From assembly GCF_036507355.1 (NCBI RefSeq), contig NZ_AP027877.1: DNA of 64,000 bases, one strand, 5' to 3'. The DNA comes from Escherichia coli. GTDB lineage: Bacteria > Pseudomonadota > Gammaproteobacteria > Enterobacterales > Enterobacteriaceae. Made by a program: the position numbers and the translations under genes. Each line of letters opens with the position of its first letter. Within the stretch, counting starts at the first letter, position 1. Under the pieces are notes generated by a model that was given only the letters and a program-made list of their open reading frames with translations, was not told where the DNA came from and ran no database searches. Below, piece by piece: positions 8,595 to 26,186 of this stretch.

Positions 8595-9799
8595 TAATCC
8601 ACCAATAATTCCAGCGCGCGGTCAACGGCATTCACCAGCGCATCCACATCACTCTTTGTATTATATGGCGCAAAAGAGGCGCGCAGTGTGCCGGTTACGC
8701 CTAATTCTGCCAGTAGCGGCTGAGCGCAATGTTGCCCGGCCCGCAAGGCAATACCGTACTCCGCCAGCAGCGTCACCATATCGCTGTGATGAACGCCAGC
8801 AAAATCAAAGGCCAGCAGGCTGGAATCCTGACAGCGGAATGAACGGAAGCCTGGACGTTTCGCCAGCGCATCTTCCGCCAGTGTTGCTAAACTACGGCTC
8901 CAGCTTTCGGCCTGGTTGATATCGTAATCTGCCAGCCATTCCAGCGCCGCGCTTAATCCTATGACACCAGCCACATTTGGCGTTCCTGCTTCCAGTTTCC
9001 ACGGCGCAGATTGAGTCGTGAAGCCGTCAAAACTCACTTCGTGAATCATTTTGCCGCCACCCAGCCAGGGCGACATCGCTTCCAGCAGTTCTGATTTGCC
9101 ATACAGCACGCCGATACCCGTCGGGCCATACAGTTTGTGACCAGAGAAAGCATAGAAATCGATATCCAGTTGCTGAACATCTGCGGGGAAATGCACCGCC
9201 CCCTGAGCACCATCAACCATCACCACCATCCCGGCTGAATGAGCAAAGGTAATCGCTCGCGCCAGATCCGGGCAACCGCCAGTAACGTTCGACATCTGAC
9301 CCAACGCCAGAATCCGACTACGGGGAGTAATCAGTTCTGGCAACAAATCGACATCCGGCAGTCGCTGCGCATTAAGCGGCAATTTCACCACTTTGGCTCC
9401 AGTTTGTTGGGCGACCATCAGCCAGGGGACGAGGTTGGCGTGGTGTTCTGCCACGCTGACAATAATCTCATCGCCCGGTTGCAGACGCGGACGCGCATAG
9501 CATTGTGCCACCATGTTGATGGATTCAGTGGTGCCGCGCGTCCAGACGATAGTTTTATCATCCGGTGCATTCAGTAATTGCGCCACTTTCTCTCGTGCAG
9601 CTTCATAACGCGCGGTCAGGCGTTGGGCTTCGGCAAACTGGCTGCGATGGACGTTTCCGGCGCTCAGACTGTAAAACTGTCGGGTGGCTTCAACCACGGC
9701 TTCAGGTTTAAGCGCGGTCGCGGCGCTGTCGAGATAGACGCCCGCATCCTGTAGTGCGGGAAACTGGGCGCGAAACTGCGCGGGATTAAAAACGTTCAT
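8594..9799 (-). CDS. csdA: Cysteine desulfurase / cysteine sulfinate desulfinase CsdA
   Basis: 401-aa class V aminotransferase from ATG (rc 9797-9799) with GGAG RBS; PLP-lysine region [10 protein letters not shown]. Confidence 0.9.
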
Positions 9800-13036: not shown

Positions 13037-13768
13037 TCAGGCTGTTACCAAAGAAGTTGCAACCTGGCGCTCATCAGAAATAATGTGCGTTACCTCATCC
13101 AGATGCCCGATGCGGGCTTCCCCTGAACGATTAAATTTACTTTTATCAATCAATAACAACGATTGCGCGGCACGTTTTAATAGCATCGATTTGTAATCAG
13201 CGTTGATAGCATTGGAGTCCCACAGTGCGCCGCTGCTATCGATCCCTTCACAAGAAAAAATAAACAGATCGATTTCCAGCGATTTAAGTTGGGAAATCAG
13301 CGAGGGATTGACGTAACAGCCATATTTGCGCTCAAGTGTGCCGCCGGAACTGATCAGTTGAATGCGTTCGCGTTTACCGAGTTCATGGCAAATCGGATGG
13401 CTATTGGTGAAGACCTGAATGTTGATGTCAGGCAACTGGCGTGCCAGATACCAGCAGGTTGAACTGGCGTCTAAGGCTATCACCATCCCTTCTTCAATCC
13501 ATGCGAGCGCTTCGCGCGCGATATCTGCTTTATGCGCATAATGGCTTTTCAGCCGGATGTGAAAGGGATCGCCACTGTCTTGATTTTGACGGTGGATATT
13601 TTTAGCGCGCCCATGATTGCGCAGAATTTTACCCTGCGTCTGTAATTCATTGAGATCGCGACGAATGGTTTCTTTACTGACCTTTAGCTGTTCAGAGAGA
13701 GCTTCCGTGGTCAGGCTGGTATGGTTCAGCAGCAGGTCGACTATCGCTTGCTGGCGTGCCGCTTTCAT
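13037..13768 (-). CDS. fucR: DeoR-family L-fucose operon activator FucR
   Basis: 243-aa ORF from ATG (rc 13766-13768); DeoR HTH plus sugar-phosphate-binding domain. Confidence 0.9.
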   Translation of the reverse strand: MKAARQQAIVDLLLNHTSLTTEALSEQLKVSKETIRRDLNELQTQGKILRNHGRAKNIHRQNQDSGDPFHIRLKSHYAHKADIAREALAWIEEGMVIALDASSTCWYLARQLPDINIQVFTNSHPICHELGKRERIQLISSGGTLERKYGCYVNPSLISQLKSLEIDLFIFSCEGIDSSGALWDSNAINADYKSMLLKRAAQSLLLIDKSKFNRSGEARIGHLDEVTHIISDERQVATSLVTA

Positions 13769-13825: not shown

Positions 13826-14248
13826 TTACGGTGTTACCCCTTTTTTTAAAAGAATATTCCCGTACTTCGCTCGTTCGCCTGTGATAACGATCGCAAAGGC
13901 TTTTTGCGCCCGTTCATAAAACGCAAAACGATTGATGCGGATGATGTCAGGACAGGGGGCTTGTAGTGAAAGCGCATTACGGTAACGTCGTTCTACTTCA
14001 GGATCGAGAGTGTCACCTTCTACCGCCGCCATCATCACCAGCGGTGGTGCATAACTGTCCAGTTCAAATAACGGGATAATCGCCTGGAGCAAGTCGCTCA
14101 CCAACAGGCCATCAGCGCGGATCACCTGCGGTCCCATAGAATGGGCGGGAAAGTGAGCATCGGAAAAAATAATTTCATCTCCATGTCCCATCTCTGCCAG
14201 CACTTTCAATAGTTCGGGAGAAATTAACGGCGAAATTGTTTTCAGCAT
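13826..14248 (-). CDS. fucU: L-fucose mutarotase FucU (RbsD/FucU family)
   Basis: 140-aa ORF; fuc operon synteny. Confidence 0.9.
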
Positions 14249-14249
14249 T

Positions 14250-15668
14250 TCACACTTCCTCTATAAATTCAGGTTCAGTTTGCGGGTAGAAATAACGGTA
14301 CTGATAATGAATCTGTGCACGGGCTTCTTCCGGGCTGTTAAATTCCCCTACGCCATACCAACCGAACAGCGCAGCTCCTGCGACGGTCGTTTCGGCATCG
14401 TCGAGAACTTTTACCGGAATATCAAGCATATTGGCTTTAATCTGATTCCACAATGTGTTGCGACTTCCTCCACCGACTAACAATAATTCAGAGGCCTTAA
14501 AGTGCCCGATTTTTTCCAGCATCTGTAGATTGCGCTGTAATTGCGCAGTTAACCCTTCCAGCGCCGCGCGATAGAAATGCCCCCGCGTGGTATTAAGCGT
14601 CACTCCTTGCCAGCCAGCGTTCTGACACGACAATAAATCACACTGCATTTTCACGCCATCCGCGCCAGGCGCGATCAGACGAGCCTCTTCAATCAACATT
14701 TGCCAGGGTGTTTCAGCCGTCCAGAACAGTTTTCTCACCCATTCCAGCACGCCGGATGCCAGCCATTGCATACCTGGGTTATACAACCCTGCCTGGCTAT
14801 CCAGTTCGCAGGTGGAACCGGCGTACTGACTTAACAGCGAAGTATCAACCTGGGCGCTGCGAACCATTAAAATTTCCCATGTACCGGAAGAGAGCACGGG
14901 TTCATTTTGTTCAGCACCAGCGCCAAAAAGGGCGAACTGGGTATCGTGACCTGCGGAAATCACCGGTATGCCAACGGGTAAGCCGAGCATTGCTGCGGCG
15001 CTGTTCTGTAGCGTACCAATCTGTTCACCCGCTTCCACCAGACGAGGGAAGAGTCGGCGTGGAATACCGGTGGCTTGTAAAATTTGCGGACTGAAATCGC
15101 GTTGCTGGATATCCAGCATCTGGCTGGTTCCGGCCATCGTGATATCAGTAGTGAATTCGCCGGTTAAACGGTGGTTAATCAGCGACGAAATAAAGAGCCA
15201 GGCGTGCGCGCGTTCCAGCAGTTGTGGATGATTTTCTTTCAACCACACCAACTTATATAACGTATTGAAACTAAAGGCTCCGACGCCAGAAATAGCCTGC
15301 AACCGCTGTGCGGAGATTAACCGTTCAATATTGTCCATAACCGCTGCTGTTCGCGGACATTTCCAGCTAATGATCGGATAGAGCAGATTACCTTGCTTAT
15401 CTACCAGAGCGCCATCCACACCAAAGGTGGTGACGGCGATACCGCGGATGTGGCATTCAGTCAGTTCACTATTGATTTGCCGACAGCAATCAGCAAAGCG
15501 TTGCAAAATCGCGTCTAAAGACCACTGGTGCCAGGTGTTGTTTTCCATCGCGATATCGCTGGCATTAGGCGTTGAGGCGCGGGCAACAATTTTTCCCTGC
15601 CGATTAACCGCGATGGCCCTGACATTGGTCGCGCCACAGTCGAGTACCAGGATAACTTCTTGTTTCAT
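14250..15668 (-). CDS. fucK: L-fuculokinase (FGGY family)
   Basis: 472-aa ORF from ATG (rc 15666-15668) with AGGAG RBS; an upstream in-frame ATG at 15698 is an alternative start. Confidence 0.9.
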
Positions 15669-15776: not shown

Positions 15777-17552
15777 TTAACGCTTGTACAACGGACCGTA
15801 GTTCTGGCAAGCGCGGTAATCCTGGCCTTCAATATCCATGCCGTGCGCAGCCCAGGCAGAAGGACGATACACTTTGGTCTCTTCAACGTTGTGCATACAT
15901 ACCGGGATACGCAGCATGGAGGCGAGAGTGATAAAGTCTGCGCCAACGTGGCCGATGGTCAGAACCCCATGGTTAGCGCCCCAGTTCTCCATTACCGAAT
16001 ACACATCCGTAAACGGCCCTTTACCGGTGAGGCGCGGTGCAAACCAGGTGGTTGGCCAGGTTGAGTTGGTGCGTTTGTTGAGGATGTCATGCACATCCTT
16101 CGGCAATTCCACGCTCCAGCCTTCCGCGATTTGCAGTACCGGTCCCAGGCCTTTGATGATGTTGACACGAGTCATGGTGAACGGGACGCCGCCTTCGGTA
16201 AGGAAGCGGGAAGAGTAACCGCCGCCACGGAAGTATTCGTGGATCGCCGGGCACCATTCGGTAGCGGCGAGGCAAGCGTCAGCCTCTTGCTGAGAGATTT
16301 CCCAGTGTGGCTTCATCGTCGGGTTACCTTCGCTGTCGCGTTGTTTACAGGAACCGTCCAGCGCAGCAGAACCTGAGTTGATCAAATGGATGATGCCGTG
16401 TTCTGCCAGTCCATCGAGTTTATGCCCCGTTACACGCTCAATTGCTTCTGGTGACCAGTAGGTACGCACATCGGCAAATACCTGAGCGGTGCCGGTGAGC
16501 TGGTGACCCATTAGCATTGCCACGCCGTTAAGACTGTCGTTTTCGGTCGCCACGACAAAGGGTTCGCGCACGCCATTCCAGTCAAATGAACTGTTAAGGA
16601 TCGCTTCGGCGGTGTCGCCATTGGGATATTGATCGGTCCAGTGGCGTTGCCCCTGGAAGCCCGCAGCGATAGCGTTGTAGCCAAGTGATTCTTCCACGCG
16701 ACCAATATCGGCCAGTTTGCTGTTGCCTTGCATCATGTCGCGGATACACATCGCCATCAGTAAACTTTCGCGCAGAACTGCGCGGTTTTGCTCGGCATTG
16801 CGTTGATACTGTTTGTTATTTTCATCTTCGCCATAGCGGAAGTTTTTATCAGCCCAGGCCAGCGCCATTTCCAGTTCGGCTTCGTCGTAAATCTTCTGAT
16901 CGATACGGCGACGAAGTTCGGTCATATCCACCGCCTGGACTTTCATTCCCAGCCAGGATTCAAAGAAGTTGTGATCAACAATAGATCCGGCGATACCCAT
17001 CGAAACGCCGCCCAGCGACAGATAGCTTTTACCTTTCATGCTGGCGACGGCCAAACCGGCGCGGGCAAAGCGCAGCAGTTTTTCTTCAACATCGGCAGGA
17101 ATCGATGTGTCATCGGCATCCTGAACGTCATGACCGTAAATGGAGAATGCCGGGATGCCTTTCTGGCTGTGAGCTGCCAGAGCCGCTGCCAGGTAAACAG
17201 CGCCGGGACGTTCAGTGCCGTTAAAGCCCCAAATGGCTTTCGGGCGGGTTGGATCCATGTCGATGGTTTCACTGCCATAGCACCAGCAAGGCGTTACCGT
17301 AATGGTGAGGCCTACATTCTGGCTGCTGAATTTTTCTTCGCAAGCAGCGGCTTCAGCCATACCCGCGATACAGGTATCGGAAATGACACACTCGACGGCA
17401 GCTCCGCAGGCATGGCGCAGTTTCTCGGTCAGCAGTGTGGCCGTGGCTTTCGCCATATTCATTGTTTGTTCTTCAAGCGACTCACGAACACCCATGCGAC
17501 GACCGTCAATAACCGGGCGGATACCAATTTTCGGTAACGTATTAATTTTCAT
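15777..17552 (-). CDS. fucI: L-fucose isomerase
   Basis: 591-aa FucI-family ORF; N-terminus [14 protein letters not shown]. Confidence 0.9.
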
Positions 17553-17634
17553 CAGGATTCCTCATCTCGCTTTATTGGCGCTCTGCTAAGGCGGAGAAAG
17601 GAAACCACCGAAGCAGTAGTATTGGTCATTATTT

Positions 17635-17650
17635 GCTAACTCGAGTTAGC
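17635..17650. promoter_or_regulatory. Perfect 16-bp palindrome GCTAACTCGAGTTAGC (candidate operator), copy 1
   Basis: Exact self-complementary 16-mer centred on CG in the fucI / ABC-transporter divergent intergenic region. Confidence 0.5.
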
Positions 17651-17694
17651 TTAGGTTCGTAGGCTTTTTATGCACAACTTTTTTGTTGTTGAAA

Positions 17695-17710
17695 TGTGAG
17701 GGGCTTCACG
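17695..17710. promoter_or_regulatory. CRP-like site TGTGA-N6-TCACG
   Basis: TGTGAggggctTCACG, 9 of 10 matches to the CRP core consensus, lying between the two palindromes. Confidence 0.4.
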
Positions 17711-17873
17711 AGAAGTGGTTAAAATACGATCTCTGTCAAATTATTATTTAGCGGGACAAAAATAAATTTTACGTATAATCATATGTTTATTAGATTTTAA
17801 TGGTTATGCATCACAGTTTTAACTCAAATGATTTGGCTAATTTGTATACCTAAAATAGCTTTAAAAGGCGATC

Positions 17874-17889
17874 GCTAACTCGAGTTAGC
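17874..17889. promoter_or_regulatory. Perfect 16-bp palindrome GCTAACTCGAGTTAGC (candidate operator), copy 2
   Basis: Identical to the copy at 17635-17650; centre-to-centre spacing 239 bp. Confidence 0.5.
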
Positions 17890-18021
17890 AAAATGCGAAG
17901 AATAGATTGATGCGATGAATATTTATTCAAAGGTTATTCGTATCACAGTGGAGATGGCTTTAGTAGCGACGTTTATGCCGTACTTCACATTTTCAGTTTC
18001 TGATTATTGAGGAAAGCTGCA

Positions 18022-19521
18022 ATGTCCGAAACATTTTTGCAAATGAAGCATATCACCAAACGCTTTCCTGGAGTGTTGGCGCTTAATGACGTGCAATTTT
18101 CCCTACGCCGGGGCGAGGTTCATGCATTATTAGGTGAAAATGGTGCAGGAAAATCTACCTTAATGAAAATTTTGTCGGGGGTTTATCAACCTGATGAAGG
18201 CGAAATAATTTTTGAAGATAAACCAGTCTCATTTTCTGATCCGTTAAGTGCGCAAAACGTAGGTATTACTATTATTCACCAGGAATTTAATTTATTTCCC
18301 GAGCTTACAGTAGAGGAAAATATTTTTATCGGCAGGGAGTTTTGTAAAAAAAATCGCTGGCGTCTGGATGAGAAACAGCAACGCCAGGCGACGATCGAAA
18401 TTTTGCAAAAATTAAATTTGGCGATCAAACCAGATACTCTGGTTGCCGACCTTACGGTAGCTCAACAGCAGATGGTTGAAATTGCCAAGGCCATTTCGGT
18501 TAACGCCAGGATTCTCATTATGGATGAACCTACTGCGGCGTTAACAGAAACTGAAATTGAAAGCTTATTTCGCGTCACCCGCTTATTGAAAGAGCAGGGG
18601 ACCGGCATTGTGTATATATCCCACCGTCTGGAAGAGTTGGCGCTAATTGCCGACCGCGCGACTGTAATGCGTGATGGTCAGTACATCAGTACGGTGGATT
18701 ATGAGTGCGTAAAAATCAGCGATCTGATTGCCATGATGGTTGGTCGCGATTTAGGGAATATCTATCCCCGCCGCGAGGCCATACAGCAGCGGATGCCGGT
18801 TCTGGAGGTCAACGGACTGACGCGCAAAGGCGTACTCAACGATATTAATTTTACGCTTTATCGTGGCGAGATCCTCGGCTTTGCCGGACTGATGGGGGCA
18901 GGTCGTACTGAACTTGCGCGTGCGATTTTTGGTGCGGACTCCATTGACAGCGGAACGCTAAAGTTAAATGGTAAGGAAACCGTTATTAAAGATATTTCGG
19001 ATGCTATTCAGCAGGGAATTAGTTACCTGACGGAAGACCGAAAAAAAGAAGGGTTGGCACTGAATTTATCTGTTGAACGAAATATTATGTTAGGAAATTA
19101 CCCTGAGTATTCCGATCGTTTTGGGAATGTCGATTCGCGTCGTTGCCAACAAACCAGTGAGGAACAGGTAAAAGCGTTAAGGATTAAAACGCCAAATCTT
19201 GAACAGGCTGCATTAAATCTAAGTGGAGGAAATCAGCAGAAAATTATAATTGCACGTTGGGTGTGTAAAGATACTGATATTTTAATCTTCGATGAACCCA
19301 CTCGCGGCATTGATGTTGGCGCCAAACTGGAAATCTATGAGTTAATGAATCGCCTGGTGGCAAAAGGGAAATCAATCATCATGATCTCCTCTGAATTGCC
19401 GGAGGTGTTAGGAATGTGCGACCGTATTTTAGTGATGCGCAGTGGTCGAATTACTGGCGAACTTAGCGCAAATGAAGCGACACAAGAAAAAATCATGCAA
19501 TACGCGACGTTAGAGGATTAA
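18022..19521 (+). CDS. Sugar ABC transporter ATP-binding protein, two fused ABC domains (CUT2 family, RbsA/XylG-like)
   Basis: 499-aa product from ATG 18022 (GAGGA RBS); Walker A GENGAGKST, second-domain signature LSGGNQQK and degenerate second P-loop GLMGAGRTE; about 42% GC. Confidence 0.85.
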   Translation: MSETFLQMKHITKRFPGVLALNDVQFSLRRGEVHALLGENGAGKSTLMKILSGVYQPDEGEIIFEDKPVSFSDPLSAQNVGITIIHQEFNLFPELTVEENIFIGREFCKKNRWRLDEKQQRQATIEILQKLNLAIKPDTLVADLTVAQQQMVEIAKAISVNARILIMDEPTAALTETEIESLFRVTRLLKEQGTGIVYISHRLEELALIADRATVMRDGQYISTVDYECVKISDLIAMMVGRDLGNIYPRREAIQQRMPVLEVNGLTRKGVLNDINFTLYRGEILGFAGLMGAGRTELARAIFGADSIDSGTLKLNGKETVIKDISDAIQQGISYLTEDRKKEGLALNLSVERNIMLGNYPEYSDRFGNVDSRRCQQTSEEQVKALRIKTPNLEQAALNLSGGNQQKIIIARWVCKDTDILIFDEPTRGIDVGAKLEIYELMNRLVAKGKSIIMISSELPEVLGMCDRILVMRSGRITGELSANEATQEKIMQYATLED

Positions 19522-19524
19522 ATT

Positions 19525-20508
19525 ATGACTATCTCTGTAACCTCTCCAGACAGCAATAATAAGAAAATAAAGATAAATAAAGAACTTTTGATGCGCCTTG
19601 CGCCTCTTTTTAGCTTAATTATATTAGCGCTGTTTTTTAGTTTCAGCTCTCCCTTTTTCTTTAATACCGAAAATATCATGACGATTGCTCTGCAAACGTC
19701 GGTTATCGGCATTATGGCCATTGGGGTAACTTTCGTCATTATTACCGCGGGCATCGATCTTTCATTGGGTTCCGTGGTGGCTTTTTCTGGTGTCGCCGTG
19801 GGGATTTGCGCCACACTGGGCCTGCCGCTGCCAGTGTGTATTATTGCCGGTGTTTTAGCCGGTGGAATGTGCGGCTATGTGAATGGTTTGTTGGTCACTA
19901 AAATGACTATTCCACCGTTTATCGCTACCTTGGGCCTGATGATGTCCGTCAGAGGTATCAATATGGTGATGACCGACGGGCGCGCCATCTATTTTGCCGA
20001 TTACCCGATGTTCAAAACGCTCGCTCAGGGACGCTTGTTTGATGTGCTACCTTATCCTGTTTTCTACCTGGTCATTGTGGCGCTTGTCGGCGCTTACATC
20101 CTGAAGAAAACGGTTATTGGTCGCTATGTCTATGCCGTAGGCAGTAATGAAGTTGCTGCTCATCTTTCTGGTATTAAAGTTCAGCGCGTGAAAATTTTCG
20201 TCTATGCCTTCTGTGGTTTATTAACCGGGATTGCGGGTGTCATTCTCGCTTCTCGTCTCAACTCCGGACAACCGACGGTAGGTGTGGGTTATGAGCTGGA
20301 AGCTATTGCTGCGGTAGTGATCGGCGGAACCAGCTTAATGGGCGGTATTGGCACTATTGGCGGCACAATCATTGGCGCTTTCATTATGAGTGTACTGAAA
20401 AATGGCCTCAATTTAATGGGGGTCTCTCAGTTCTGGCAAATGGTCGCGATGGGCGTAGTTGTGGTCGCTGCCGTTTACCTCGATACATTACGCAAAAAGA
20501 TTCGTTGA
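19525..20508 (+). CDS. Sugar ABC transporter permease (RbsC/XylH-like)
   Basis: 327-aa polytopic membrane ORF starting 4 nt after the ATPase stop with GAGGA RBS. Confidence 0.85.
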   Translation: MTISVTSPDSNNKKIKINKELLMRLAPLFSLIILALFFSFSSPFFFNTENIMTIALQTSVIGIMAIGVTFVIITAGIDLSLGSVVAFSGVAVGICATLGLPLPVCIIAGVLAGGMCGYVNGLLVTKMTIPPFIATLGLMMSVRGINMVMTDGRAIYFADYPMFKTLAQGRLFDVLPYPVFYLVIVALVGAYILKKTVIGRYVYAVGSNEVAAHLSGIKVQRVKIFVYAFCGLLTGIAGVILASRLNSGQPTVGVGYELEAIAAVVIGGTSLMGGIGTIGGTIIGAFIMSVLKNGLNLMGVSQFWQMVAMGVVVVAAVYLDTLRKKIR

Positions 20509-20581
20509 CTTAGGCTCCCTGTTTTATCGGGAAACAACTGCCCTGACGTTAAGGGTGATTCACTCAGAACGGAGTACAACA

Positions 20582-21532
20582 ATGAAAACCAGGCATTTTA
20601 TCTATGCGTTATCTCTGCTGGCTTGCGTAAGTTCCAGCGCACTGGCGAAGGATTTAAATCTTCCGGTTGTTAGTAAAGGTTTCCAACATGAATTCTGGCA
20701 AACCGTAAAAATGGGGACTGAAGCTGCGGCTAAAGAGTTGGGGGATAAAACCAGCTATGTTGGCCCGGCTGATGAAACGCAAATAGCCGAGCAAATTCAG
20801 TTAGTCGAAAATGCGATGGCGCAGAAACCGAATGGCTTGCTTCTGGCAGCCCTCGACGCGAATGCGCTCGCCCCACTGGTAGAAACGGCAAATTCACGCG
20901 GTATCAAAGTGGTGACCTTTGATTCAGGCATCAATTCAGACATTCCGGTGAGTTTTGTCGCCACCAATAACCGTAAAGCAGGTGCTCAGGCAGCTGATGC
21001 CTTAGCCGCGCAGGTAAATAATAAAGGGAAAGTAGGGATTATCGCGCACGTTGCAGGAACATCTTCCGCTATTGAACGCTCGGAAGGCTTCATGGAGCGT
21101 ATGAAAGAAAAATATCCTGACATTAAAGTTTTACCCGTTCAGTACAGCGATGGTGACCCGCAAAAAGCGATGGATAAAACTATCGATATGATTCAGGCCA
21201 ATCCCGATCTTGCTGGGATCTATGGCACCAATGAAGGTTCAACGCTCGGGGTGGCGAATGCCATTGATAGCCAGAATCTGAAAGGTAAGGTGAAGGTCAT
21301 TGGTTTTGATAGTACGGAAGCGATTATTAACTTCCTGAAGAACGGCGTCATTCAGGGCTTTGTTGTTCAGGATGCATACCAGATTGGCTATCAAGGGATC
21401 AAAACGTTGAACGCGGCCCTTTCGGGACAAGCCGTTGAAAAAGAGATCGATATTCCCGTGAAATTTGTTAATGCCGAGAATATTAACACGCCAGAAATCG
21501 ACAAACTCCTGCACCCATTCGGTAAGAAATAA
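20582..21532 (+). CDS. Periplasmic sugar-binding protein (RbsB-like)
   Basis: 316-aa product from ATG 20582 (GGAG RBS); Sec signal MKTRHFIYALSLLACVSSSALA; the six-frame ORF starting at 20459 is an over-extension. Confidence 0.85.
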   Translation: MKTRHFIYALSLLACVSSSALAKDLNLPVVSKGFQHEFWQTVKMGTEAAAKELGDKTSYVGPADETQIAEQIQLVENAMAQKPNGLLLAALDANALAPLVETANSRGIKVVTFDSGINSDIPVSFVATNNRKAGAQAADALAAQVNNKGKVGIIAHVAGTSSAIERSEGFMERMKEKYPDIKVLPVQYSDGDPQKAMDKTIDMIQANPDLAGIYGTNEGSTLGVANAIDSQNLKGKVKVIGFDSTEAIINFLKNGVIQGFVVQDAYQIGYQGIKTLNAALSGQAVEKEIDIPVKFVNAENINTPEIDKLLHPFGKK

Positions 21533-21539
21533 AAAAATT

Positions 21540-21559
21540 GGGGATGAATTTTCATCCCC
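21540..21559. other. Perfect 8-bp-stem hairpin between the binding-protein gene and the kinase gene
   Basis: GGGGATGA-attt-TCATCCCC preceded by an A7 run; no T-tract on the plus side, so it is not a canonical plus-strand terminator. Confidence 0.4.
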
Positions 21560-21585
21560 GTTATCTCCAGCGTCAGGGAGGCTTT

Positions 21586-23166
21586 ATGCACAACGGTTAT
21601 TTTCTCGGTGTCGATGTCGGATCGGCCAGTGTCAGGGCAGGCGTTTACAGTGCCAGTGGCCACAGGCTGGCATTCGCTACTGCGCCCGTCTCCCAGTTTC
21701 GCCCTGGCGGCGAGCGTGTTGAACAGTCTTCGGCGGAGATCTGGCAACAAGTTTGTAAAACGGTGAAAGAGGCGACAGCTTTGGCAGGCATCCCTGGTTC
21801 CGCAATTCGCTCGCTAGGTTTTGACGCTACTTGCTCGCTGGTTGTTCTTGATGAACAAGGCCAGGGTTTAGCTGTTTCGCCCGGTGGATCTGCGAATCAC
21901 GACATTATTATGTGGATGGATCATCGTGCAACTGTCGAGACGGCGCAGATTAACGCGACGAAGGATCCTGCATTGCGCTACGTTGGCGGCGAAGTGAGCG
22001 TCGAGATGGAGTTACCAAAGTTACGTTGGTTGAAGACGCATCTACCGCAAACCTGGCAGGCCGCTCATCGCTTTTTCGATCTGGCGGATTTTCTGGTCTG
22101 GAAAGCAACAGGGCGAGACGTCGCGGGATTATGCACGCTAACGTGTAAATGGAATTATCTGGCTCATGAGCAACGCTTTAGCCATAGCTTACTGGAATCG
22201 ATAGACCTGATCGATATGCTTGAAAGAATTCCTGCCGACATTCTTCCGCCTGGCGCTGCCGTGGGAACATTAACCGCCACAGCTGCTGAAGAGTTAGGAT
22301 TAACGACTAATGTTATCGTGGCCAGTGGCTTGATTGATGCCCATGCCGGTGGCGTGGCGCTGGCTGGCGCGCACCCATCAGGAACGCTGGCATTGATAAG
22401 CGGAACGTCGAACTGCCATATGCTGTGTAGTGAAAAAGAGATATTCACCCCTGGCGTCTGGGGGCCATACTGGTCGGCCATGTTGCCAAATTACTGGCTA
22501 ACCGAAGGCGGGCAAAGCGCCGCAGGGGCGCTGGTGGAGTGGACGCTTCAGGAGTCAGGGGCAAGCGCAAATCTTTTTCACAAGGCGCAGCAACGCGGAT
22601 GTCATCCGATTCAACTGATTAATGAATGGGTAGCCGCCCTGGAAGCTAACGAGTCAGAACCCACACGAAATTTACATGTGCTTGCCGATCATCACGGCAA
22701 CCGTTCGCCACGAGCGCGGCCCGATGCCAGAGGCAGTGTTTATGGCTTAACACTGGAGCGTGGTGAAAGTCAGCTCGCGCGACTTTATCTTGCGACTTTA
22801 CAGGCAATAGCCTTTGGCACCAGACATATTATTGAAACTCTCAGGGAAAATGGGCATACCATTACCCGATTAACATTATGTGGTGGTGCAACGCACAACC
22901 CTTTATGGCTACGCGAATATGCAGACGTGACAGGCTGCGATATCCACCTGATGCAAGAAGAAGATGCCGTTACATTGGGTGCAGCAATTAGCGGCGCTGT
23001 TGCCAGCGGAGCATGGGGGGATTTTACATCTGCGTGTAAAGCAATGGTTGAAGCCGGAGAGGTTATTCAGGTAAATCCACAACGCCGTGAATTTTTAGAG
23101 CGTAAATACCGGGTTTACCTGACGCTTTGGGAGCAACAACAGGCAGTTAACCAACTGATGCAATAA
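21586..23166 (+). CDS. FGGY-family carbohydrate kinase, pentulose (ribulokinase-like) type
   Basis: 526-aa product from ATG 21586 (AGGGAGG RBS); FGGY N- and C-terminal domains (GVDVGSASVR, IIMWMDHRA); distinct from fucK. Confidence 0.8.
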   Translation: MHNGYFLGVDVGSASVRAGVYSASGHRLAFATAPVSQFRPGGERVEQSSAEIWQQVCKTVKEATALAGIPGSAIRSLGFDATCSLVVLDEQGQGLAVSPGGSANHDIIMWMDHRATVETAQINATKDPALRYVGGEVSVEMELPKLRWLKTHLPQTWQAAHRFFDLADFLVWKATGRDVAGLCTLTCKWNYLAHEQRFSHSLLESIDLIDMLERIPADILPPGAAVGTLTATAAEELGLTTNVIVASGLIDAHAGGVALAGAHPSGTLALISGTSNCHMLCSEKEIFTPGVWGPYWSAMLPNYWLTEGGQSAAGALVEWTLQESGASANLFHKAQQRGCHPIQLINEWVAALEANESEPTRNLHVLADHHGNRSPRARPDARGSVYGLTLERGESQLARLYLATLQAIAFGTRHIIETLRENGHTITRLTLCGGATHNPLWLREYADVTGCDIHLMQEEDAVTLGAAISGAVASGAWGDFTSACKAMVEAGEVIQVNPQRREFLERKYRVYLTLWEQQQAVNQLMQ

Positions 23167-23230
23167 GACAAAAGTTGAAAATACTTTTATGATTGTGATT
23201 TGACGTCTGGATGTTAACTGGGAAATACCT

Positions 23231-24229
23231 ATGGCTAAAACAGTAGAGCAGATAGCCAGCGACCTGAATTTATCGGTTACGACCGTGCGACTGGTGCTAA
23301 ATGGAAAAGCGGAACAATATCGAATCAGCGTCAAAACCCAAACGCGTATCAATGAATATGTTGAACACTATGGTTATATCATTAATCATTCCGCTCGCAG
23401 CCTTAAACTTAACAAAACTGATACATTAGGGTTGATTGTTCCCAACATATCCAACGTCTTTTTTGCTACGCTGGCAGAAAAACTTGAACAACGCTGCCGA
23501 CGTTCCGGATATCAACTTACGATCAGTTGTACTTATGATGATGTCGACTATGAAAATAAATTGACGAAAGCATTTATCGCACGAAATGTAGATGGTCTTT
23601 TTATTGTTCCTTCGACGCTGGAGAATCAGCAGCATCATTTACGCAAAATTCGTAAACCAATGGTTTTACTCGACCGTGATTTTAAATATACCGATAATGC
23701 ATTGGTAGAGAGTAATAATATTTCTGGCGGAGAAAAGTTGACACAAAATATTCTTGAGGCCGGGCAGACTCCAGTATGGTTTTTGCTGGGGGATGCCGGT
23801 TTGCCGAGTATCAGCGATCGTCTGACAGGTTATTTGAATGCGTTGGAAAAAAAAGGGATTACCCATCGCGATTGGGTGCGAGAAGGCCCGGTAAATACTC
23901 CGGAAGGCGGCTATGTCATTATGGAAAAACTCATTGAAGAGCAGGGATGTCCGCAGGCATTTATCGCCTCGTCTTTACCTGTGCTTGAAGGCGCTGTCCG
24001 CGCGATTCGCGACCGTCTTGGCGCTGTACCGCCAGAAATCAATATTGGCACTTTCGATGAACATCCCATGCTGGGATTTCTCGCCAACAATGTCTGGTCA
24101 ATGCAGCAGGATGAAAATGCCTGGGCAGAAAAAGCGTTCGAAATGATGTTAAGCGCGATCGAAGAAAGACCAGTCAAAAAAACAGTCAAAGTAGAAATGA
24201 AATTAATTAAGCGCATAAGAAAAAAATAA
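23231..24229 (+). CDS. LacI-family transcriptional regulator
   Basis: 332-aa ORF with N-terminal LacI HTH (VEQIASDLNLSVTTVRLVLNG) and periplasmic-binding-like effector domain; about 43% GC. Confidence 0.85.
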   Translation: MAKTVEQIASDLNLSVTTVRLVLNGKAEQYRISVKTQTRINEYVEHYGYIINHSARSLKLNKTDTLGLIVPNISNVFFATLAEKLEQRCRRSGYQLTISCTYDDVDYENKLTKAFIARNVDGLFIVPSTLENQQHHLRKIRKPMVLLDRDFKYTDNALVESNNISGGEKLTQNILEAGQTPVWFLLGDAGLPSISDRLTGYLNALEKKGITHRDWVREGPVNTPEGGYVIMEKLIEEQGCPQAFIASSLPVLEGAVRAIRDRLGAVPPEINIGTFDEHPMLGFLANNVWSMQQDENAWAEKAFEMMLSAIEERPVKKTVKVEMKLIKRIRKK

Positions 24230-24362
24230 TAATCGCCAAAAGATAATCAGGCTATTGAACAATGATATTCAGTGGCCACCCCTTACTAAAAATAACCCCG
24301 TCTTCATTTGCGGTGCTGTTTTACGCAACAAGGCGAGCTGGAACTGTATCTGGAGAATAGAG

Positions 24363-25010
24363 ATGGAAAGAACACGTTTATCCCGTGAAATAATTGAAAC
24401 CTGTCTGGAAATGACGCGCCTTGGGTTAAATCAGGGGACTGCGGGGAATGTCAGCACACGTTTTGAAAACGGCATGTTGATTACTCCAAGCGGTATTCCT
24501 TATGAAAGAATGACGGAGAATATGATTGTCTATGTTGATGGCAACGGCAAATACGAAGAAGGTAAGATTCCTTCCAGCGAATGGCGTTTCCATATGGCGG
24601 CCTATCAAAGCAGACCGGATGCCAACGCGGTTGTTCACAATCATGCCGTTCATTGCACAGCAGTTTCCATTCTTAACCGACCGATCCCCGCTATTCACTA
24701 CATGATTGCGGCGGCTGGCGGTAATTCTATTCCTTGCGCGCCTTATGCGACCTTTGGAACACGCGAACTTTCTGAACATGTTGCGCTGGCTCTCAAAAAT
24801 CGTAAGGCAACTTTGTTACAACATCATGGGCTTATCGCTTGTGAGGTGAATCTGGAAAAAGCGTTATGGCTGGCGCATGAAGTTGAAGTGCTGGCGCAAC
24901 TTTACCTGACGACCCTGGCGATTACGGACCCGGTGCCAGTGCTGAGCGATGAAGAAATTGCCGTAGTGCTGGAGAAATTCAAAACCTATGGGTTACGGAT
25001 TGAAGAGTAA
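24363..25010 (+). CDS. fucA: L-fuculose-1-phosphate aldolase (class II); N-terminal third diverged from the K-12 sequence
   Basis: 215-aa product from ATG 24363 (GGAGA RBS); residues from about 70 onward match K-12 FucA as I recall it, the first ~70 differ at about 18 positions. Confidence 0.85.
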   Translation: MERTRLSREIIETCLEMTRLGLNQGTAGNVSTRFENGMLITPSGIPYERMTENMIVYVDGNGKYEEGKIPSSEWRFHMAAYQSRPDANAVVHNHAVHCTAVSILNRPIPAIHYMIAAAGGNSIPCAPYATFGTRELSEHVALALKNRKATLLQHHGLIACEVNLEKALWLAHEVEVLAQLYLTTLAITDPVPVLSDEEIAVVLEKFKTYGLRIEE

Positions 25011-25037: not shown

Positions 25038-26186
25038 ATGGCTAACAGAATGATTCTGAACGAAACGGCATGGTTTGGTCGGGGCGCTGTTGGGGCTTTA
25101 ACCGATGAGGTGAAACGCCGTGGTTATCAGAAGGCGCTGATCGTCACCGATAAAACGCTGGTGCAATGCGGCGTGGTGGCGAAAGTGACCCATAAGATGG
25201 ATGCTGCAGGGCTGGCATGGGCGATTTACGACGGCGTAGTACCCAACCCAACAATTACTGTCGTCAAAGAAGGGCTCGGTGTATTCCAGAATAGCGGCGC
25301 GGATTACCTGATCGCTATTGGTGGTGGTTCTCCACAGGATACTTGTAAAGCGATTGGCATTATCAGCAACAACCCGGAGTTTGCCGATGTGCGTAGCCTG
25401 GAAGGACTTTCCCCGACCAATAAACCCAGTTTACCGATTCTGGCAATCCCCACCACAGCAGGCACTGCGGCAGAAGTGACCATTAACTACGTGATCACTG
25501 ACGAAGAAAAACGGCGCAAGTTTGTTTGCGTTGATCCGCATGATATCCCGCAGGTGGCGTTTATTGACGCTGACATGATGGATGGTATGCCTCCAGCGCT
25601 GAAAGCTGCGACGGGTGTCGATGCGCTCACTCATGCTATTGAGGGGTATATTACCCGTGGCGCGTGGGCGCTAACCGATGCACTGCACATTAAAGCGATT
25701 GAAATCATTGCTGGGGCGCTGCGAGGATCGGTTGCTGGTGATAAGGATGCCGGAGAAGAAATGGCGCTCGGGCAGTATGTTGCGGGTATGGGCTTCTCGA
25801 ATGTTGGGTTAGGGTTGGTGCATGGGATGGCGCATCCACTGGGCGCGTTTTACAACACTCCACACGGTGTTGCGAACGCCATCCTGTTACCGCATGTCAT
25901 GCGCTATAACGCTGACTTTACCGGTGAGAAGTACCGCGATATCGCGCGCGTTATGGGCGTGAAAGTGGAAGGTATGAGCCTGGAAGAGGCGCGTAATGCC
26001 GCTGTTGAAGCGGTGTTTGCTCTCAACCGTGATGTCGGTATTCCGCCACATTTGCGTGATGTTGGTGTACGCAAGGAAGACATTCCGGCACTGGCGCAGG
26101 CGGCACTGGATGATGTTTGTACCGGTGGCAACCCGCGTGAAGCAACGCTTGAGGATATTGTAGAGCTTTACCATACCGCCTGGTAA
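25038..26186 (+). CDS. fucO: L-1,2-propanediol oxidoreductase (iron-containing alcohol dehydrogenase)
   Basis: 382-aa Fe-ADH family ORF (an additional ATG lies at 25035). Confidence 0.9.
   Translation: MANRMILNETAWFGRGAVGALTDEVKRRGYQKALIVTDKTLVQCGVVAKVTHKMDAAGLAWAIYDGVVPNPTITVVKEGLGVFQNSGADYLIAIGGGSPQDTCKAIGIISNNPEFADVRSLEGLSPTNKPSLPILAIPTTAGTAAEVTINYVITDEEKRRKFVCVDPHDIPQVAFIDADMMDGMPPALKAATGVDALTHAIEGYITRGAWALTDALHIKAIEIIAGALRGSVAGDKDAGEEMALGQYVAGMGFSNVGLGLVHGMAHPLGAFYNTPHGVANAILLPHVMRYNADFTGEKYRDIARVMGVKVEGMSLEEARNAAVEAVFALNRDVGIPPHLRDVGVRKEDIPALAQAALDDVCTGGNPREATLEDIVELYHTAW

Follow-up and report, generated by a model that had tools for sequence, protein, structure and literature searches.

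A divergence step inside fucA and an allelic cassette at the fuc locus of Escherichia coli

A 64,000-nucleotide (nt) stretch of Escherichia coli DNA (contig NZ_AP027877.1; "the window" below means this whole stretch) carries a fuc locus in which the aldolase gene fucA is mosaic relative to strain K-12. fucA lies at 24363-25010 on the plus strand and has 215 codons in the list of open reading frames (ORFs) of the window. Its first 213 nt are diverged from K-12, and the remainder is nearly identical. This step marks the right-hand edge of an allelic cassette of about 7 kb (17538-24575). The cassette is the known E. coli B L-fucose/D-arabinose (darK) cluster and not a new structure. The best overall explanation, which we hold with reasonable though not full confidence, is that this ATP-binding cassette (ABC) transporter/DarK form is the resident one, and that two old alleles have been exchanged by homologous recombination.

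Divergence step in fucA and the cassette borders

The K-12 reference for fucA is the MG1655 fuc region (NZ_CP014225.1; locus L001, positions 8971-9618), which was compared with the window without gaps. The two genes differ at 64 of 648 nt. Counted in 30-nt bins along the gene, the differences number 13, 5, 6, 10, 8, 8, 8, 2, 0, 1, 1 and 0, and then 0 or 1 per bin. A maximum chi-square scan places the breakpoint at nt 213 (window position 24575), with 59 differences in the 213 nt on the 5' side and five in the 432 nt on the 3' side (chi-square 112; Fisher p=1.5e-25); none of 5000 permutations gave a value as high, the permuted maximum being 23.8. Segment 1 (nt 1-213, codons 1-71; 24363-24575, plus strand) is 72.6% identical to K-12 and forms part of the cassette. 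Segment 2 (24576-25010, plus strand) is 98.8% identical and belongs to the common Escherichia flank, with the crossover directly 3' of 24575.

The FucA proteins differ at 19 residues (4, 5, 7, 9, 12, 32, 34, 35, 36, 43, 49, 50, 53, 54, 57, 58, 64, 69 and 107); 18 of these lie at residues 4-69, and the remaining one is S107P. An earlier note on this DNA, written without database searches, claimed about 18 differences from K-12 FucA in the first 70 or so residues, near identity thereafter, and a recombination junction within the gene. The alignment and the chi-square scan bear out all three claims, and the K-12 sequence on which the note relied was right: it equals PDB entry 1FUA residue for residue.

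The last site that distinguishes the two locus types is nt 213 in all four ABC-type E. coli with an uninterrupted fucA (the window, TB06052, R32 and EC50), and type-specific differences are absent from the 105 nt just 3' of this edge. The cassette-type 5' segment is present in five of five ABC-type E. coli examined, namely these four and REL606. In REL606, which is not part of the nt-213 count, fucA is split by IS1. The window allele is not an assembly artefact, because the same fucA is found on at least 1000 public contigs and in about 379 complete E. coli genomes. Of 5,426 complete E. coli genomes, about 380 (~7%) have the ABC-type locus, which REL606 also has. The remaining genomes match the window fucA only from 24384 or 24393 on, at 90-95% identity, and there are no intermediate classes.

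The left border lies inside fucI, which encodes L-fucose isomerase (15777-17552, minus strand). The gene is K-12-like apart from codons 3-5 and is 98.8% identical to K-12 from nt 16 to its end. At the junction the differences are limited to fucI nt 8-15 (17538-17545, minus strand), where the window has ATGAAAATTAATACG and K-12 has ATGAAAAAAATCAGC, and MKINTLP replaces MKKISLP. This is the altered fucI N-terminus that had been noticed earlier at the other edge of the island. The window form of the fucI start is common to E. marmotae, E. whittamii and Escherichia sp. E4742, and the K-12 form is common to Salmonella, Klebsiella and Citrobacter. MKINTLP is a derived character, found only in Escherichia ABC-type loci. 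Divergence from K-12 is near zero past fucA nt 213 and from fucI nt 16; outside the junctions, the flanks are 98.5-98.9% identical to K-12 over at least 7 kb on the left and at least 9.6 kb on the right.

The interval between these genes (17553-24362) has no K-12 counterpart; it encodes an ABC transporter, an FGGY pentulose kinase and a LacI/FruR-like regulator. fucP and the 546-bp K-12 fucP-fucA control region are missing from the window locus, and the K-12 fucP-fucA intergenic region shares only chance 8-9-mers with the two window spacers. The change is a replacement and not an insertion, because fucP and the K-12 control region are both gone. At this place most E. coli carry a 2.1-kb cassette, made up of fucI nt 1-15, fucP, the FucR/CRP-dependent fucPIK/fucAO control region and a deeply diverged version of fucA nt 1-213. 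A homologous replacement with breakpoints in fucA and near the 5' end of fucI, as first suggested from the sequence, fits these borders. The usual marks of a mobile island (integrase, transposase, tRNA or direct repeats at the borders) were not found: no such ORFs are present between 17553 and 24362, and both borders lie inside conserved genes.

The same layout is found well beyond E. coli. Relatives were collected by a DarK scan of one genome per bacterial species, and further loci came from exact-protein look-ups. In the scan, the arrangement of fucK-fucI, then the divergent ABC genes, DarK, regulator and fucA, with fucO following in most cases, turned up in E. whittamii, eight Citrobacter species, Lelliottia, Huaxiibacter, Enterobacter hormaechei, Atlantibacter and Affinibrenneria. 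The look-ups add E. marmotae (24 of 24 contigs read), an Escherichia locus nearly identical to that of E. whittamii (L089), and Escherichia sp. E4742. The ABC-type loci thus include four non-E. coli Escherichia loci and more than 10 Citrobacter loci, besides those of Enterobacter, Lelliottia and Atlantibacter. Loci of the fucP type used for comparison come from Salmonella, a Klebsiella michiganensis-like contig and Citrobacter sp. AAK_AS5.

The two parts of fucA have different relatives. In segment 1 (nt 1-213/215 in these comparisons) the window is 95.8% identical to E. marmotae, 90.7% to E. whittamii and about 80% to ABC-type Citrobacter; the corresponding values in segment 2 are 93.7%, 90.5% and about 78%. 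K-12 is only 71.2% identical to E. marmotae and 69.8% to E. whittamii in segment 1, versus 93.5% and 90.2% in segment 2, and its identity to Salmonella is 79.5% in segment 1 and 77.7% in segment 2. Separate trees of the two segments (neighbour-joining on p-distances, from short segments and without bootstrap) are incongruent. In the segment 1 tree, locus type decides the grouping: K-12 sits with fucP-type Salmonella, Klebsiella and Citrobacter AAK_AS5, and the window with ABC-type Escherichia and Citrobacter. The segment 2 tree follows species, all E. coli joining the other Escherichia. Segment 1 is the orthologous fucA 5' end of the ABC-type locus and not a piece of a paralogue. The suggestion that the island had brought an aldolase-like 5' segment was mistaken: the same fucA 5' end is present in every ABC-type locus examined, from Escherichia to Atlantibacter.

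Proposed resident and recombinant alleles

In the explanation that we favour, the two cassettes would be old alleles of one locus, swapped by RecA-type homologous recombination through the conserved fucI and fucA sequence, and the sharp cassette edges would be fossil crossover points. The ABC/DarK cassette would be the resident Escherichia allele, and the fucP cassette would have entered the E. coli lineage, or stayed polymorphic in it, before the phylogroup radiation. The chimera would then be the K-12 fucA and not the window fucA.

The direction of the exchange was examined by asking which allele departs from its flanks. The window cassette genes are 89.8-95.8% identical to those of E. marmotae, compared with 92.6-95.4% for the flanks, and divergence is similarly even against E. 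whittamii and sp. E4742. The window allele is thus even against these sister Escherichia, and the K-12 allele is even against Salmonella. Because of the even divergence from sister species and the MKINTLP change, the ABC/DarK cassette looks native to the genus, and it is the K-12 5' third of fucA that looks displaced. The earlier note had the island arriving by homologous replacement; an arrival in a K-12-like ancestor finds no support here. That the ABC cassette introgressed recently from one of the sister species sampled was also considered and rejected, as no species is closer to the window in the cassette than in the flanks.

Both cassettes appear to be old alleles, because the diversity of each within E. 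coli is about that of the flanks. The fucP cassette differs by 1.1-2.4% among K-12, S88, IAI39 and O55:H7, equal to the flanks, and the ABC cassette differs by at most 2.3% among E. coli strains. Both types also occur on a divergent background: Escherichia sp. HH091_1A (L100) is fucP-type and "E. coli" R32_14_1F (L085) is ABC-type, and their flanks are 98-99.8% identical to each other and 3-5% removed from E. coli sensu stricto.

Several points weigh against the favoured explanation. The ABC type is a minority in E. coli, at about 7%. The ABC and regulator genes and fucA segment 1 have a GC content of 43-47% (40-50% at third codon positions, GC3), compared with 51-55% (GC3 53-59%) in the flanks, which hints at foreign ancestry at some earlier time. 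The fucP cassette also looks vertically inherited, being as far from Salmonella (fucP 80.0%, segment 1 79.5%) as its flanks are (77.7-81.9%), and a protein search found no FucP between 93% (Klebsiella, Salmonella) and 97% (E. coli) amino-acid identity, and so no closer donor of fucP. The polarity is deduced from sampled fuc loci that lie outside E. albertii and E. fergusonii; papers and protein names gave no information on the locus type of these two species. The DarK scan itself gave E. whittamii and not E. marmotae or E. ruysiae; the E. marmotae and sp. E4742 loci, which came by other routes, carry darK with three to five of the six search peptides. Sampling of non-E. coli Escherichia is biased, since ABC-type FucA forms clusters of its own and a fucP-type FucA from such a species would hide in the E. 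coli cluster, as that of HH091_1A did. Finally, the regulatory model given below is drawn wholly from sequence conservation.

One alternative needs no import within Escherichia. Both cassettes, with their common edge at fucA nt ~213, would go back to an ancestor of Escherichia, Salmonella, Citrobacter and Klebsiella that was already polymorphic, and would have been sorted or maintained by niche-dependent selection, E. coli keeping both. Either cassette is as close to its counterpart in another genus (about 80% identity) as the flanks are, and the lack of a sampled donor for the fucP cassette and the presence of both types on the HH091_1A/R32 background point the same way. Cross-type comparisons between genera share an edge near fucA nt 210-213: Salmonella and Citrobacter fucA differ at 14-16 sites per 30 nt up to nt 210 and at 4-7 thereafter, and Citrobacter sp. 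AAK_AS5 gives a similar pattern. However, the conserved active-site motif at nt 214-240 could serve as a recurrent crossover site and yield the same edge independently. Two alleles would also have to last for a very long time, linked divergence might be expected in the 105 nt 3' of the edge, where there are no type-specific differences, and E. marmotae, E. whittamii and sp. E4742 yielded no fucP-type locus. We regard this alternative as unlikely, though it deserves consideration.

A related proposal is made tentatively, and we lean against it more than for it. The centre of the fuc locus may be a very old, possibly trans-species polymorphism with two alleles, fucP with FucR/CRP control and an ABC transporter under a LacI-type repressor, DarK being present or not. 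Its edges (fucA codon ~71 and fucI codon ~3-5) would be fixed across Escherichia, Salmonella, Citrobacter and Klebsiella, and E. coli would have carried the pair from a time before its radiation, presumably because niche-dependent selection acts on the uptake and sensing of fucose and D-arabinose. If so, the textbook K-12 FucA, the enzyme that was crystallised, is itself a natural chimera, and the locus would be a compact natural case of alternative transport and regulation modules kept within one species by a long-lived balanced polymorphism.

The opposite polarity is improbable. In it, homologous replacement would have brought a foreign island from a distant source into a fucP-bearing, K-12-like ancestor, together with a donor-derived fucA 5' segment and promoter, and the window fucA would be the chimera. 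The minority status of the ABC type and the low GC of the cassette speak for it, and the literature describes the locus in terms of insertion or acquisition (PMC12307932). Against this, the cassette is as diverged as the flanks from E. marmotae, E. whittamii and sp. E4742, with no sampled species showing excess similarity; the layout is present in every non-E. coli Escherichia locus sampled; the cassette bears the Escherichia-specific MKINTLP change; and E. coli strains differ in it by up to 2.3%, more than a recent arrival would allow.

Two further possibilities are very improbable. That the N-terminal third of FucA evolved rapidly under selection without recombination, for example for D-ribulose-1-phosphate, would suit the packing of 18 amino-acid changes into residues 4-69, but it is refuted by the incongruent segment trees and by an abrupt step that includes synonymous changes: 24 of the 42 differing codons in segment 1 differ only synonymously, so the divergence is old and not due to selection on the protein, and it runs on unbroken into the upstream non-coding sequence. 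The other possibility, that a class II aldolase paralogue elsewhere in this genome converted the 5' end of fucA, has no supporting point and is likewise refuted by the orthology of segment 1 to sister-species ABC-type fucA (91-96% identity) and by the score of the whole protein against the fucA equivalog model; segment 1 is also contiguous with the unique upstream DNA of the cassette.

Genes and control regions of the cassette

The ABC operon begins with an RbsA-like sugar ABC transporter ATP-binding protein (18022-19521, plus strand), for which the best NCBIfam match is RbsA at 588 bits, below the 745-bit cutoff; its substrate is not assigned. An RbsC-like permease follows at 19525-20508 (plus strand), recognised from its ORF and a profile search, and then a periplasmic sugar-binding protein (20582-21532, plus strand) with weak similarity to AlsB, RbsB and RhaS, all under cutoffs. 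The FGGY-family pentulose kinase at 21586-23166 (plus strand) scores 532.4 bits against TIGR01315 (cutoff 408.7) and is 98.3% identical at the nucleotide level to the REL606 gene; it is the E. coli B D-ribulokinase, named DarK (PMC12307932). The last gene before fucA encodes a LacI-family, FruR/Cra-like regulator (23231-24229, plus strand; ORF and profile search), homologues of which are widespread across Enterobacteriaceae.

Two Citrobacter loci differ in content. C. amalonaticus (L092) has the ABC transporter, the regulator and both operators beside fucA, without darK and fucO, and C. rodentium (L093) has a decayed copy of the locus, broken by transposases. Because of these loci, and because darK has a GC content of 52.8% against 43-47% in its neighbours, the data suggest that darK was added separately and that the fuc pathway itself is what the ABC system serves. 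The GC content of K-12 fucP is 47.7%. As regards mobility, the cassette is not absent from the same site in sister species, as a mobile island would be: it is there in E. marmotae, E. whittamii, two more Escherichia loci and Citrobacter.

The fucI gene and the ABC operon diverge from a 469-bp control region (17553-18021), which stands in place of the K-12 fucP-fucA control region and contains blocks conserved across 11 ABC-type loci from five genera. A perfect 16-bp palindrome, GCTAACTCGAGTTAGC, occurs twice in it, once near fucI (17635-17650) and once near the ABC operon (17874-17889). The copies, found by a search of the window and in the 11-locus alignment, are 239 bp apart; the 64-kb window has no further match, and 0.13 would be expected. 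Every Escherichia and Citrobacter ABC-type locus examined has two unchanged copies of its 14-nt core, and a single copy lies directly upstream of the darK homologues of Brenneria, Silvania, Serratia and others. Between the palindromes lies a CRP-like site, TGTGAGGGGCTTCAC (17695-17709), with invariant TGTGA and TCACG halves. The palindromes and the CRP-like site are invariant blocks of the 11-locus alignment, and the palindromes are probably operators of the LacI/FruR-like regulator of the cassette.

The second spacer, of 133 bp (24230-24362), lies upstream of fucA. Consensus scans of its plus strand found no terminator-like and no consensus sigma-70 promoter-like site. The earlier note thought that the island had probably brought its own promoter; the region upstream of fucA is wholly unlike that of K-12. 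As the coding strand of the spacer has neither a terminator-like nor a promoter-like site, fucA-fucO may be the last genes of a transcript of the ABC-darK-regulator operon; alternatively, the spacer would hold a promoter that escapes recognition. The spacer also contains an inverted repeat, TGAACAATGATATTCA, at 24256-24271, which is conserved in Citrobacter in the form CTGAATA-N4-TATTCAG and is missing in the short C. amalonaticus spacer. The K-12 intergenic region has four CRP and four FucR operators on which expression depends (PMC11894529), and this region is wholly missing in the window locus. Control in the window would be by the repressor of the cassette together with CRP, and not through the K-12 FucR operators.

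The genes on either side are K-12-like. To the left are fucR (DeoR-type L-fucose activator; 13037-13768, minus strand), collinear with L001 2560-3291 at an offset of 10477 in a flank about 99% identical to K-12; fucU (13826-14248, minus strand), collinear with L001 3349-3771; and fucK (L-fuculokinase; 14250-15668, minus strand), with 99.4% nucleotide identity. To the right is fucO (lactaldehyde reductase; 25038-26186, plus strand), 99.0% identical to K-12.

The encoded FucA is predicted to be a normal L-fuculose-1-phosphate aldolase. It passes the equivalog model TIGR01086 (426.7 bits, cutoff 400.25) and matches PRK08087 at 439 (threshold 264), and it lies in the expected company of fucO and fucIKUR. 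Residues 1-215 align without gaps to PDB 1FUA, and residues 70-215 are identical except for S107P. This part includes the key residues Glu73, the zinc ligands His92, His94 and His155, and Tyr113. In segment 1, Asn29 and Gly44 are kept, and Thr43, a phosphate-binding residue, is replaced by Ser. BL21(DE3), which has the same locus type, grows on L-fucose (PMC6150544; PMC10221146), and it also grows on D-arabinose, as is reported for B strains without a regulatory mutation (PMC6150544).

Some further observations were made on fuc genes elsewhere. In REL606 (L003 11971-13395) an IS1A insertion follows fucA nt 441; it may be the reason that BL21(DE3) outgrew REL606 on L-fucose (PMC6150544). The bovine, fucP-type strain CFS3292 (L084 7317-9471) has lost the start of fucP, the control region and about 170 nt from the 5' end of fucA, and carries IS1B in their place; its match to the window from 24540 (H30) was considered as a third fucA allele and rejected as an IS1-mediated deletion in a fucP-type strain. 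A FucP with 94% identity (P0121) was likewise rejected as a non-E. coli Escherichia protein, being from an ordinary E. coli with an extended start call. Two loci of Affinibrenneria salicis (L019 and L020), on one scaffold, ~150 kb apart and in opposite orientation, agree exactly in their protein-match coordinates and identities across the ABC-type fuc locus as a whole, which points to a large inverted duplication or an assembly artefact. Two FucA proteins (P0005 and P0058), labelled Plesiomonas (91%) and Martelella alba (88%), are about as near to K-12 FucA as that of Salmonella, which suggests horizontal spread of fuc genes or mislabelled records.

Comparison with known fuc loci

The E. coli B L-fucose/D-arabinose cluster goes back to Elsinghorst and Mortlock (1994), as cited in PMC12307932 and PMC10221146. 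The E. coli B strain REL606 has the same order as the window, fucR-fucU-fucK-fucI followed by ABC ATPase-permease-binding protein-DarK-LacI regulator-fucA-fucO, at 97.7-99.6% nucleotide identity. It differs in that its fucA is split by IS1, whereas that of the window is intact. In BL21(DE3), the ribulokinase-like gene ECD_02649 also sits between fucA and fucI (PMC6150544).

The window resembles the K-12 fuc regulon (fucPIKUR/fucAO) in fucR, fucU, fucK, fucI from nt 16 on, fucA from nt 214 on and fucO, which are 98.8-99.4% identical. It differs by the absence of fucP and of the four CRP and four FucR operators, and by 18 residues in FucA codons 1-71. The abstract of the 1994 cloning study reportedly placed a 5.2-kb segment between fucA and fucP. 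The sequence differs from that description: it has no fucP, and the replaced stretch takes in 213 nt of fucA and 15 nt of fucI.

"Variant 2" of the fucose operon (Saif et al. 2023; PMC10221146) also has an ABC transporter in the place of fucP, and was found in 50 of 1058 genomes and in 7.5% of isolates, in agreement with the ~7% of complete genomes here. That study is silent on recombination and on a mosaic fucA, and names neither DarK nor the LacI-type regulator nor any other Escherichia species. A literature search, which did not extend to the 1994 cloning paper, found no earlier account of a mosaic fucA or of recombination at the fuc locus; a prior description there is possible. The searched literature has nothing on the exact junctions, the chimeric relation of the fucA alleles, the presence of the cassette in sister Escherichia or the operator; the locus variant, the kinase and the loss of fucP are already published.

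What is gained here is mainly interpretation. The "insertion" of the E. coli B literature is an allelic replacement with crossovers inside fucA and fucI, and the other sampled Escherichia loci have the ABC/DarK version too. FucP and the K-12 FucR/CRP operators are lacking in about 7% of E. coli. This affects the use of K-12 as the wild-type fuc regulon, in work on fucose sensing during gut colonisation, in propanediol evolution experiments and in metabolic models of BL21 and REL606. The two palindrome copies offer a concrete candidate operator for an uncharacterised LacI-type regulator.

The window fucA exemplifies something well known, a crossover within a gene where an allelic cassette ends, here in a known polymorphic locus. 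In E. coli, gnd lies next to the O-antigen rfb cluster and is a mosaic housekeeping gene that hitch-hikes beside a polymorphic cassette. As in gnd/rfb, the fuc locus has an intragenic breakpoint in a housekeeping gene abutting deeply diverged alternative alleles. Unlike gnd/rfb, it has two alleles, with the same edge in all sampled strains, and the module exchanged serves sugar transport and regulation and not a surface antigen.

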